From: a virus
Reading direction: 5' to 3' (one strand)
DNA length: 64,000 nucleotides
IMG/VR virus record: IMGVR_UViG_3300037237_000386
Coordinates: 1-64,000 of that record
Shown piece by piece: positions 9,539 through 51,787 of this stretch (the stretch's first letter is position 1; each line of letters starts with the position of its first letter). The position numbers and the translations under genes were made by a program. The notes under the pieces are model-generated. The model searched no databases, was not told the origin of the DNA, and saw nothing but the letters and a program-made list of their open reading frames with translations.

Positions 9539-9559
9539 AACCGCGGGGTTCGGGCTGAG

Positions 9560-9575
9560 GGAAACCCGGGTTTCC
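9560..9575. repeat. 16-bp palindrome, copy 2
   Basis: Exact; 20 nt upstream of TTGACA. Confidence 0.95.
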
Positions 9576-9595
9576 CCCGACCCAAAGAAACAAGG

Positions 9596-13177: not shown

Positions 13178-13578
13178 TGGTGAAGCCCAGGCGCGCGGAG
13201 AACCTGCAGGAATCGACCGAGCGGCTCAACCGGCTGCTCGCGAAGGCGGAGGAGATATTCAGCGCCGCGAACGCAGAGGACGGGGCGACGGCGCAGGTGG
13301 AGCTCGCCCCTTTCCTCAGCTCGGGCAAGGGCGGGGCGCGGCTCCACTGGAAGCGACACGACAGCACGTGGGGCTTGTGGGTGGAACGACAGGGGACCGA
13401 TGTGCTGGTGCGCCTCGCCAAGGTAGCGCGCCACGTGCGCGTCCTCGCGGCGAGCAAGCTGGAGGCCCTCTTCGACGCGCTCGCGGACGAGCAGCTCGCC
13501 CAGGGCGATGACGTCGCCAGGGCGGTGCAGGACGCGGAGGCGTTCGTCGAGGAACACGAGGGACCCACGAGCGCCTGA
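13177..13578 (+). CDS. Hypothetical protein
   Basis: TGATG coupling; stop abuts a palindrome. Confidence 0.55.
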   Translation: MVKPRRAENLQESTERLNRLLAKAEEIFSAANAEDGATAQVELAPFLSSGKGGARLHWKRHDSTWGLWVERQGTDVLVRLAKVARHVRVLAASKLEALFDALADEQLAQGDDVARAVQDAEAFVEEHEGPTSA

Positions 13579-13579
13579 G

Positions 13580-13595
13580 GGAAACCCGGGTTTCC
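13580..13595. repeat. 16-bp palindrome, copy 3
   Basis: Exact; 21 nt upstream of TTTACA. Confidence 0.95.
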
Positions 13596-13616
13596 CCCGG
13601 GGCGAGTAGAAAGCGG

Positions 13617-48917: not shown

Positions 48918-48953
48918 CACTCGGCATTGTGCGCGCGGCGTGAGGGAGAGACC

Positions 48954-49832
48954 ATGAGCAAGCGGACGACCGAGTTTCTACCACCCGTCACCTACCAAGG
49001 CGGCAAGGGCCGCCTAGCAGCGCAGATCGTCGAGACGATGGGGCTCCCCATCGCCGGTCGATTCTATGACCTCTGTTGCGGCTCGGGCGCCATCTCAGTT
49101 GCCGCAGTCGAGCGGGGCCAAGACCCGAGCCGCATCACAATGGTCGACCTCTCGCCATGGGGTCTCTTCTGGAAGTCGATTGGCGACGGGTCCTTTGACG
49201 TTTCTCAATTCGAGTTGCATGCAGCGCGAGTGCCACGCGACCCCTGGAAGATAAAAGAATACGTAGAAGCCCTTTCGCGAGAGCGCGTGGGCGACGATCG
49301 CGTCTATGTGTTCCTGATCTTGCAGGCTGCACGGTTTGGCGGCGCGGCGATCTGGATTGACGGAGAGAAGTGGTGTGGCGGCGGCTTCCGTCAATACTGG
49401 ACATCGGCGTCGTCGAAAAAGGAACCGACACGCGGTCGAGAGAACCCCAATTCAACACCGCCCATGTGCCCCATGCCCGACGTCATCGTAGCGCGGTGCC
49501 GATCGCTCGCTCAGAGGATGCGAGGGGTACGAGCCATCTGCGACGACCTTGGCAGACCGGGATTCGACCTGCGTCTAGTCGTTGGGGACGGAGATGTTGC
49601 TTACATCGATCCCCCCTACGCAGGGACGTCGAAATATGGCTACGAAGTTGACGCCTCAAAACTGGCCTCGTCGCTCGGCGTGCCGTGTTGGGTTTCTGAG
49701 GGACGCGGACTTACACCTGGCGCCATCTGTCTCTCGCGTGGACGCATGAAGGGCGGCATGTCCGGCACCCGAACACGCGCTCCGAACGAAGAATGGATCA
49801 GTCCGTTCGGAACCGAAAAAGTGCGGACATGA
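48954..49832 (+). CDS. DNA adenine methyltransferase (Dam/D12-like)
   Basis: YQGGK, DLCCGSGAIS, YIDPPY; lower GC than the flanks. Confidence 0.85.
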   Translation: MSKRTTEFLPPVTYQGGKGRLAAQIVETMGLPIAGRFYDLCCGSGAISVAAVERGQDPSRITMVDLSPWGLFWKSIGDGSFDVSQFELHAARVPRDPWKIKEYVEALSRERVGDDRVYVFLILQAARFGGAAIWIDGEKWCGGGFRQYWTSASSKKEPTRGRENPNSTPPMCPMPDVIVARCRSLAQRMRGVRAICDDLGRPGFDLRLVVGDGDVAYIDPPYAGTSKYGYEVDASKLASSLGVPCWVSEGRGLTPGAICLSRGRMKGGMSGTRTRAPNEEWISPFGTEKVRT

Positions 49833-49851
49833 CACTCGCGCTTTTGCGCGC
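49821..49851 (+). repeat. 31-bp direct repeat, copy A
   Basis: GTGCGGACATGACACTCGCGCTTTTGCGCGC; 30/31 identical to 51757-51787. Confidence 0.9.
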
Positions 49852-50096: not shown

Positions 50097-50602
50097 GCAG
50101 GGGGTCGACGCCCATCTCGGGCTCTCCCGAAGAAGTGGCCGAGCTGCGCGTGGTGGCCAAGGCGCCACCTCAGATGCTGGAGCAGAAGGCCGAGCTGGAG
50201 GCCGCGTATGCCCGCATCAAGGAGCTGATGGCTGAGGCCGAGAAGGAAGAGGTGCGCTGGCAGGAGCGCATCGCGGCGGTAATCACGTCCGCCGGCCTGA
50301 CGCCAATCGATGCGAGCGGAAACGAGTCGGGCGACCCGCTCGATTGGACCGCGGATCAAGTAGCGGCAGCACTAGGGGAGTTGAATGCAGCAGCCGACGA
50401 ATCGCGCGCCCACGACGGGGCGCTTTCCGCGTTCTCCCCCGAACAGCGCGCCGAACTGGAGAAGCCGATTGCTCCCGCCCCCGCACTGGATCGGTGGGAC
50501 GGTACGTTCCTGAACTGCTGTGGCCTTCGGCAGCTCGCGGCGACATGGTGTCGACTCTGCCGCCTCGACAGGGACGGAAAGCCACACGGGAGGGGGGCGT
50601 AA
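50093..50602 (+). CDS. Hypothetical protein
   Basis: Coupled ORF. Confidence 0.5.
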   Translation: MSRGSTPISGSPEEVAELRVVAKAPPQMLEQKAELEAAYARIKELMAEAEKEEVRWQERIAAVITSAGLTPIDASGNESGDPLDWTADQVAAALGELNAAADESRAHDGALSAFSPEQRAELEKPIAPAPALDRWDGTFLNCCGLRQLAATWCRLCRLDRDGKPHGRGA

Positions 50603-50958
50603 TGGGGCAGTACAGGGAGCGACACGGACGAGATGGTGAGAAGATTCAGCTCGTCCTCACGTCGGATGAGCAGAAGCGCATCTGGGCGAATGCGGAGCGA
50701 ACGGCTGAGCGCGTGCGGCAGTGGCCTGAGTGGAAACGCGGCGGGCATCAAGGGCGATTTGTGCTCGCCCTCACGTGCTGCGGCCGAGACGACGGCGAAG
50801 CCTCATTCGATACGTGGGATGATGCGGACGAGTTCCGTGAGCACTACCTGTCCGGTCCCGGCGTCGGTCTCCCGACAGAGACACGCTTCGGCCGTGGAGG
50901 TCATTCGAGGAGCGCGATCATCGTCGTTTGCGCTGTACGTACTGAACGCCCGTCTTAG
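50602..50958 (+). CDS. Hypothetical protein
   Basis: TAATG coupling. Confidence 0.5.
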   Translation: MGQYRERHGRDGEKIQLVLTSDEQKRIWANAERTAERVRQWPEWKRGGHQGRFVLALTCCGRDDGEASFDTWDDADEFREHYLSGPGVGLPTETRFGRGGHSRSAIIVVCAVRTERPS

Positions 50959-50974
50959 AATCGACACCAGGCCC

Positions 50975-51003
50975 TTGCGCTGTACGTACGGAGCACGTAT
51001 AGT
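50975..51003 (+). promoter_or_regulatory. Sigma70-type promoter overlapped by a 15-bp direct repeat
   Basis: TTGCGC-17nt-TATAGT; TTGCGCTGTACGTAC also at 50928-50942. Confidence 0.7.
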
Positions 51004-51054
51004 CTAGTCATCAGACAGCGACGACGCCCGCTGCGGGGATGGGCTCCCGGTAAG

Positions 51055-51306
51055 AAGGGCTGAGAAGAAGGTGCGTACCTACAAGGAACGCGCGGGACTG
51101 CGGTGGCTAAGAGCCGAGCGAGCGCGGGAAGGTGAAAGTAGGGCTTGCACCGAAAGCCCCCTAATGGCCGCGAGGCAGGACGAAGGGGTGAGTAGGCGGC
51201 CGTCCGAAATGCCCTAACCTGTACGTCTCCGTAACCGCTCGGCGCTTCAAGCCGCCTCGACGTTCGGCTCAGGAGAGATGACGCACGCACCTTCTTCTCA
51301 GCCCTT
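51055..51306 (+). ncRNA. Candidate structured RNA or leader closed by a perfect 22-bp inverted repeat
   Basis: AAGGGCTGAGAAGAAGGTGCGT (51055-51076) pairs with 51285-51306; nested stems; a GCGA tetraloop. Confidence 0.55.
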
Positions 51307-51319
51307 GAGAGGACGAGAG

Positions 51320-51598
51320 ATGGACTTCACGGCAATCGACCTGTTCGACGGAGAGTTTTCGTTCCTGCCGTTCGAGGCGGGCGTTCGCTACGGCGAGGTC
51401 CCGCTCTACCCGACCAGCGAGGACTTCCACAACTTCGTCAGCACGAAGTGTCACGAGCAGCGTCCTGCGGCACACTGGCACCTGGAGGCCGTCCGCTGGC
51501 GCCGTCAACACCCTGGCAAGCCGCTGAACGATGGCCTCAAGGAAATCGCCATCGCGACCGCAGCGGCCATCCACAAGACGCTCGACGAGGACCGATGA
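51320..51598 (+). CDS. Hypothetical protein (alternative start at 51278)
   Basis: RBS GAGG just after the inverted repeat. Confidence 0.55.
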   Translation: MDFTAIDLFDGEFSFLPFEAGVRYGEVPLYPTSEDFHNFVSTKCHEQRPAAHWHLEAVRWRRQHPGKPLNDGLKEIAIATAAAIHKTLDEDR

Positions 51599-51768
51599 CG
51601 CGCTCCGGCACCCCGACGACGCCCAACGGCCGGCGCAAGCGTCCGATGGTGACGCTGACGCTCTCGCCGGAGGCACTTGCCCGGCTGGACGACCTCGCAG
51701 CCGAGCGCGGGCAGACGCGCAGCGGTGCCGTCGAGGCCCTCATCCGCAACGCGCGCGTGCGGACGTGA
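51595..51768 (+). CDS. Ribbon-helix-helix (CopG-like) regulator
   Basis: MVTLTLSPEALARLDDLAAERGQTRSGAVEALI. Confidence 0.8.
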   Translation: MTRSGTPTTPNGRRKRPMVTLTLSPEALARLDDLAAERGQTRSGAVEALIRNARVRT

Positions 51769-51787
51769 CACTCGCGCTTTTGCGCGC
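51757..51787 (+). repeat. 31-bp direct repeat, copy B
   Basis: GTGCGGACGTGACACTCGCGCTTTTGCGCGC. Confidence 0.9.

Follow-up and report, generated by a model that had tools for sequence, protein, structure and literature searches.

Among structured RNAs of this size, a near-invariant core together with GNRA loops and a covarying clamp usually marks a ribozyme, a riboswitch or a ribonucleoprotein scaffold and, to our knowledge, few such RNAs have been found in phages. In the lambda pL-nutL-N region and at the T7 early RNase III sites, a repressor-controlled early promoter drives a long structured leader, in which a helix of RNase III size is located just upstream of the ribosome-binding site (RBS) of a small gene of the regulatory region. 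Type III toxin-antitoxin loci consist of a tandem-repeat RNA antitoxin, followed by a terminator and then by an endoribonuclease toxin. In the leader-trailer helices of rRNA, variable but covarying flanks pair over more than 17 bp around a conserved structured RNA, and the helix is cut by RNase III while other RNases trim the ends (PMC10250234).

The element described here shares the last of these arrangements, as a conserved core is enclosed by a variable, covarying, long end-to-end helix. It is a previously undescribed and uncatalogued structured RNA family which is linked to ORF92, a gene for a small protein of 92 amino acids. Covariation shows that its structure has been conserved, and its sequence is found in RNA libraries. 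Our analysis tentatively suggests that this RNA family is made as the leader of ORF92 and that cutting of its closing stem (P1) by RNase III may release a discrete RNA, a reading to which we give somewhat less than an even chance.

Genomic setting, variable slot and companion gene

The window, i.e. the whole 64-kb stretch of DNA analysed here, is the first part of a 76.9-kb IMG/VR record (CheckV completeness 83%) and belongs to a novel phage. GC content is 65–72% across the window (68% overall), and the genes, which are on the + strand, include helicases, a DNA polymerase, methyltransferases and a large terminase that is at best ~23% identical to that of any cultured phage. Metagenome DNA runs holding this stretch come from peat, permafrost, soil and freshwater. 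In a GC3 frame plot the coding signal is absent from about 50960 to 51320 and is back at the ATG at 51320, where ORF92 begins.

A promoter of the form TTGCGC-17-TATAGT, to which the earlier note had drawn attention, is present on the + strand at 50975–51003, with the -35 hexamer at 50975–50980, a 17-nt spacer carrying a TGTACGTAC(A) half-palindrome and the -10 hexamer at 50998–51003. Transcription probably starts near 51010. The site was not called by a generic sigma-70 scan because its -35 hexamer matches only 3/6 positions. An operator-like 15-nt block (TTGCGCTGTACGTAC) has an exact second copy on the + strand at 50928–50942, which lies 47 nt before the promoter copy and is followed by no -10 hexamer. 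Five related viral contigs were retrieved via the RHH protein encoded downstream, and four of them (L005–L008) carry TTGCGCTGTACGTAC...TATAGT or a close variant directly before genes. In these four contigs a different small ORF begins 8–20 nt past the -10 hexamer, the leader being very short or absent, and the RHH gene comes next. Since the block is kept while the ORFs behind it differ, the promoter is real and conserved and the slot between promoter and RHH gene is variable; in the window phage the cargo of this slot is the element plus ORF92. The block is located at about 2755–2785 in L005, 2736–2765 in L006, 2544–2575 in L007 and 2580–2670 in L008. There are two block copies in L008, where the palindrome is the full CTGTACGTACAG, and L007 contains two RHH cassettes of this type in tandem.

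The RHH/CopG-family regulator of the window (51595–51768, + strand; PF01402, 5e-7; phrog_4738, 3e-7) has a start that overlaps the stop of ORF92 and may act as the repressor at the upstream operator (TGTACGTACA). The promoter/operator-RHH arrangement looks like an autoregulated, modular early-gene slot. A contig from the soil metatranscriptome X18 is ~87% identical to the RHH gene (window 51593–51735), and thus relatives of the cassette occur in RNA libraries.

Stretches of lower GC content (0.62–0.65) and weak GC3 signal are found around the element at 48927–49832 and 50344–51007. They include a D12-class methyltransferase-like ORF, which matches at its N-terminal only, and the ORFs just upstream of the promoter, which have no clear coding signal. 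Low-GC stretches flanking the element are in keeping with a region that is mosaic and was acquired recently. A 31-bp direct repeat (GTGCGGAC[A/G]TGACACTCGCGCTTTTGCGCGC; 49821–49851 and 51757–51787, 30/31 identical) forms the end, final codons and stop included, of both the methyltransferase-like ORF and the RHH gene, which are unrelated to each other; it has a small hairpin (CGCGC-TTTT-GCGCG) inside it. In the related contigs a ATAATGCGCGCG motif follows each RHH gene, and both the repeat and these motifs may be cassette boundary or recombination sequences. A palindrome (GGGAAACCCGGG/CCCGGGTTTCCC) recurs in the replication module (9549–9586 and 13574–13601), where it could serve as a terminator or be bound by a protein.

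ORF92 (51320–51598, + strand) is recognised as a gene by its GC3 of 0.83, its third-position excess and its homologues, with 19/19/40 changes at codon positions 1/2/3. Its protein is predicted to be all-helical and net acidic (AF2 model, pLDDT 80). A fold search against PDB and BFVD returned nothing below E = 1, the ESM Atlas gave no usable match, and Pfam and PHROG gave none. Close homologues number 8 in a collection of 5.8 billion proteins, and a search of 1.84 billion representatives at E <= 0.001 extends the family to 62 clusters, nearly all of which are stand-alone proteins of 80–150 aa. No relatives were found in GTDB genomes, and IMG/VR holds only one distant relative (L012/L018); the element is absent upstream of L012.

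A metagenome scan with the ORF92 protein alignment yielded three loci, L013, L014 and L015, the first of which is the same phage as the window. The ORF92 homologues of L014 and L015 are 68% and 66% identical in amino acid sequence, and the BLAST alignment of these loci to the window begins 230–290 nt upstream of the ORF. In the window, L014 and L015 the element is located directly 5' of ORF92 and in the same orientation, while the contexts of the L014 and L015 pairs are unrelated and their flanking genes differ. In L014 the element lies ~30 nt past the stop codon of another gene; L015 has a promoter-like site of its own (TTGACT-16-TACATT). In L015 the RNA-ORF92 pair is followed after ~170 nt by a tyrosine integrase (PF00589; L015 976–2019), and that carrier is therefore a temperate phage or an integrative element. 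The best reading of these loci is that the RNA and ORF92 travel together as a two-part cargo cassette.

The element is rare, with DNA in hand from carriers of three lineages only. It was absent from five related phage records searched by BLAST and covariance model, and blastn found 0 matches in 50,697 phage genomes and 72,556 plasmids. Two core motif patterns had no match in IMG/VR and one had none in GTDB representative genomes; the exact P1 arm sequence was likewise not matched in IMG/VR. The 76.9-kb record contained no second copy, and a search of it with covariance model R1 recovered the window copy alone. A 36-nt, 19-bit R1 match among the related phage records was judged to be a spurious hairpin.

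The retention of the RNA-ORF92 pair as a unit in three unrelated contexts, its location in the variable cargo slot of the window phage lineage and, in L015, the separate promoter-like site and adjacent tyrosine integrase would suit a trans-acting accessory system, either toxin-antitoxin-like or an anti-defence ribonucleoprotein, carried as a phage moron. However, this seems quite improbable to us because the net acidic ORF92 has no recognisable RNA-binding or nuclease fold, the distant relative L012 lacks the RNA, and the locus is unlike type III toxin-antitoxin loci, having neither tandem repeats in the RNA nor a terminator between RNA and ORF, nor any ToxN/AbiQ-like match of ORF92.

The closing stem and the conserved core

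The arms of P1 are located on the + strand at 51055–51076 (5' arm) and 51285–51306 (3' arm). As the earlier note had reported, they are exact reverse complements of each other over 22 nt, with 208 nt between them, and they form the sole perfect inverted repeat of at least 15 nt within 500 nt in the 64-kb window, in which all other inverted repeats are 81–93% complementary. In the window P1 consists of 22 Watson-Crick pairs, 20 counted from the GGGCUG/CAGCCC anchor and 22 with the outer A-U pairs. In L015 a run of 19 pairs, one of them U·G, is separated by a mismatch from 3 further pairs, and both arms carry a matching 1-nt insertion; L014 has 12 pairs, followed by one C·U mismatch and then by 7 pairs. 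The anchor is common to all three sequences. Covariation among homologues, one of the checks proposed earlier, is strong in P1: the arms covary with each other in both L014 and L015 and, of the 14 pairs outside the anchor, 10 have different bases in both arms when the window is compared with L014, with pairing maintained. The sequence of P1 thus drifts between relatives, but its pairing and its length of about two helical turns are kept. Tested for the stem length of an RNase III site, P1 offers continuous dsRNA of about two turns (~20 bp or more) in three lineages, and a near-perfect helix of ~20–22 bp with conserved length can reasonably be read as a candidate RNase III substrate.

Upstream of P1, small hairpins at 51027–51054 (+ strand) are conserved with L015 but not with L014 in alignment A2. 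Downstream, the purine-rich GAGAGGA (51308–51314, + strand) is the putative RBS of ORF92; it begins 2 nt past P1 in the window and is outside any conserved helix. The distance from P1 to the start codon is 13, 21 and 32 nt across the three lineages and, because it varies, an effect of P1 on translation is not obviously conserved. A candidate start at 51278 with AGGAG, listed earlier beside that at 51320, is unconserved, and the homologues align from the 51320 position.

Perfect 22-bp terminal inverted repeats ~250 bp apart, together with the insertion-like absence of the element from close relatives at the same promoter, could also point to a DNA-level element, either a MITE or transposon relic, as the earlier note had considered, or a cruciform that serves as a replication, packaging or recombination site. 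We consider this highly improbable. The element is single-copy in the record and was not found in the five related records or in the phage genomes, plasmids, IMG/VR and GTDB representatives searched, and no target-site duplication is present beside the arms (flanks ...GGTAAG and GAGAGG...). Moreover, the arms covary, a U·G pair included, instead of being conserved in sequence, the interior is more conserved than the arms with its GNRA loops preserved, and orientation and position relative to ORF92 are constant.

The interior begins with a short helix, P2, in which the 5' strand UAC-A-AGG (51080–51086, + strand) pairs through 51080–82 and 51084–86 with the 3' strand CCU-GUA (51218–51223, + strand). 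P2 also covaries, a U-A pair of the window being C-G in L015. The conserved core of 135 nt (51085–51219, + strand) is 87–91% identical in nucleotide sequence (L014 91.1%, L015 89.6%), whereas ORF92 itself is only 67–73% identical (L014 70.6%, L015 66.7%). The core comprises hairpin Ha (51089–51126), the helix GGGC/GUCC (51141–51144 with 51202–51205) and purine-rich junction strands. A GNRA-tetraloop hairpin, GCC-GCGA-GGC, is located at 51167–51176 (+ strand); its counterparts are CC-GAAA-GG in L015 and CCC-GAGA-GGG in L014, and a variant found in three runs (G51172A) gives a GCAA loop, keeping the GNRA pattern. The core is followed by a variable 3' region (51224–51284, + strand), which is 22–46% identical to the homologues and whose sequence and hairpins are lineage-specific.

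The 252-nt segment 51055–51306 folds with z = -5.0 against dinucleotide shuffles (0/200 as good), and the two homologues give z = -4.4 and -4.2 (0/200 as good, each). Two folds of the core fit the data, since only three independent DNA sequences are available. Fold A consists of hairpins at 51089–126, 51131–51 and 51156–200 with 3 double changes. It also emerges when L014 and L015 are folded to minimum energy without constraints and, being the only fold that was energy-tested, it exceeds the computed minimum by 12–24 kcal/mol. In fold B a single long, irregular arm includes GGGC/GUCC (51141–44 with 51202–05), and one pair of this helix reads G·U, U-A or G-C depending on the sequence; 4 pairs of fold B have double changes, a number reached in 5/500 shuffles. 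In the test for an aptamer-like domain, the result is a conserved core with 3–4 double changes among three sequences and two fitting folds. The covariation set comprised the window, L014 and L015, and left out P0001–P0004, P0006 and P0008 as well as ~60 wider ORF92-family members. Two other pairings were set aside in favour of GGGC/GUCC: GGAC/GUCC (51178–81 with 51202–05), which the earlier note had put forward and which is broken in L015 and weakened in L014, and UAGGGC/GCCCUA, which is broken in L015.

The inner pairings described in the earlier note, GCCGAGCG/CGCTCGGC (I6) and GAGCCGAGCG/CGTTCGGCTC (I10), do exist in the window, as do the GGACG/CGTCC and GCC-GCGA-GGC stems. The window 3' region holds two complements of the Ha strand (51236–51243 and 51261–51270), and the best duplex between this strand and the 3' region reaches -33.5 kcal/mol. 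Their proposed role as a conserved switch did not hold, as pairing of the GAGCCGAGCG strand with the 3' region is significant in the window only (2/200 shuffles) and not in L015 (50/200) or L014 (182/200).

These observations bear on the main rival to the processing-clamp reading, namely that the element is a purely cis-acting leader, the core of which is an aptamer or a binding site for a protein (ORF92 or RHH) and sets ORF92 translation or mRNA stability. We regard this as possible but rather unlikely. In its favour, the element invariably precedes ORF92 immediately on the same strand, no terminator separates the two, a conserved core with a variable 3' segment behind it is reminiscent of an aptamer with its expression platform, P1 of the window ends 2 nt before the RBS, and the alternative pairing of a core strand is strong in the window. 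However, neither this pairing nor the P1-to-start distance is conserved, the RBS is in no conserved helix, and a stem of 20–22 bp is too stable for ligand toggling.

Strand, identity and presence in RNA libraries

That the element is an unrecognised structured RNA, as the earlier note had proposed, is borne out by the strong covariation of its closing stem, by its + strand polarity, by its presence in RNA libraries and by the lack of an Rfam match. At E <= 10, Rfam 15 gave no match at the element in 51005–51325, in a 2.5-kb span, in L014 or in L015, and ARAGORN detected neither a tRNA nor a tmRNA. The lack of a match to any known riboswitch or leader model is a further point against the cis-acting leader. 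A likeness of the core to helix 27 of 16S rRNA, noticed by eye from a shared GGCCGCAAGGC-type hairpin, was dropped as no rRNA model matched.

The retron likeness raised in the earlier note, with the 22-bp arms as the a1/a2 repeats of an msr-msd RNA, draws on inverted repeats placed on either side of a non-coding, structured stretch that follows a promoter, a trait which the element has in common with retrons but which is not specific to them. No reverse transcriptase (PF00078) was found in the 76.9-kb record, 83% complete, at E <= 1, while control genomes did match, and the neighbours in L014 and L015 are small ORFs and an integrase with no reverse transcriptase among them. Besides, no Rfam retron RNA family matches, the repeats are longer than is typical for retrons, and the element is tied to a 92-aa gene that does not encode a reverse transcriptase. 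We therefore give this origin almost no credence.

The G·U pairs of the element fall on the + strand; read from the opposite strand, or as DNA, the same positions would be A·C mismatches. The RNA corresponds to the + strand, and the element is non-coding. A 48-aa GTG ORF (51071–51217) that could encode a small Arg-rich protein is open in the same frame across the core in the window and L014, and yet a coding origin of the core conservation is very improbable. Between the window and L014 the differences in this frame number 8/2/3 at codon positions 1/2/3 and amount to 9 non-synonymous as against 2 synonymous codon changes; in L015 a 2-nt indel inside the core hairpin shifts the frame. The GC3 of the core is 0.65 as against 0.83–0.93 in genes, and the variable sites are in loops or are compensated in helices.

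Contigs from three RNA libraries, each of a different metatranscriptome study, cover the core, at 51115–51265 (100% identical), 51081–51222 and 51082–51282; the second of these runs on into a different 3' variable sequence. This evidence consists of assembled contigs with a depth of 2–5, in which DNA carry-over is possible. A fourth run, probably of DNA, continues upstream into a variant 5' arm. The three RNA-library contigs span the P1 interior and none covers ORF92, which fits a purely cis-acting leader less well, but the lack of an RNA contig over ORF92 and the promoter is an absence of assembled contigs only and does not mean silence. The contig ends at 51081/51082 and 51282 are located just inside the P1 arms. 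Those at 51081/51082 lie beside the strain-variable base 51080 and may be assembly breaks; given the low depth, possible DNA carry-over and this variable base, ends inside P1 are a weak hint only.

Proposed processing and likeness to known systems

The reading of P1 as an RNase III clamp is preferred because the core outconserves the gene, P1 drifts at a kept length and no terminator was found between the element and ORF92. Transcription of the + strand would yield the element as a ~310-nt leader of the ORF92 mRNA. Its core would be closed first by the short P2 and then by the near-perfect ~20–22 bp P1, which would act as a clamp of leader-trailer type holding the core ends together. As this arrangement is that of rRNA leader-trailer helices, it is proposed that P1 is cut by RNase III of the host; no RNase III gene was found in the record. 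Cleavage and trimming could then free a discrete, stable RNA of ~200 nt, and the ORF92 message would keep a short leader beside its RBS. In the window phage the cassette occupies a variable slot between a putatively repressor-controlled early promoter and the RHH regulator, and the released RNA might act jointly with ORF92. Taken a step further, the core may be a ligand-sensing or catalytic RNA, or else the RNA half of an RNA-protein accessory system with ORF92, in a mobile soil-phage cassette from which the RNase III clamp excises it. We find this extension plausible but unlikely.

An RNA core that is more conserved than its companion gene, is absent from Rfam and occurs in soil and rhizosphere RNA libraries is thus found to accompany a small unannotated protein family of ~60 clusters in 1.84 billion representatives. 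Should P1 prove to be an RNase III site, the cassette would represent a compact, portable, rRNA-style way of excising a non-coding RNA from a phage mRNA, and would offer a tractable way into a new RNA function in uncultured soil phages.

RNase III cutting of the helix has been described for rRNA leader-trailer helices, whereas for the element it is a proposal. Unlike in pre-16S and pre-23S rRNA, the enclosed RNA is ~200 nt long, phage-encoded and unrelated to rRNA, and a protein gene is present on the same transcript. Bacterial and phage Y RNAs (YrlA) likewise have ends that pair into a long stem closing off a structured module, but the element has no Rfam YrlA or Y_RNA match and the record has no Ro/TROVE gene (PF05731). 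With riboswitches and protein-binding leaders it has in common the 5' leader position, a folded core and a variable segment before the RBS; in contrast to riboswitches, it has no conserved terminator or RBS-sequestering alternative, and a 22-bp clamp is atypical for them. The lambda and T7 leaders resemble it in being structured leaders with an RNase III-sized helix before the RBS, here that of ORF92. The element differs from lambda pL-nutL-N in having no boxA/boxB and in the acidic, not N-like, nature of ORF92, and it differs from both the lambda and the T7 leaders in that its helix encloses a conserved multi-helix domain instead of a simple hairpin.
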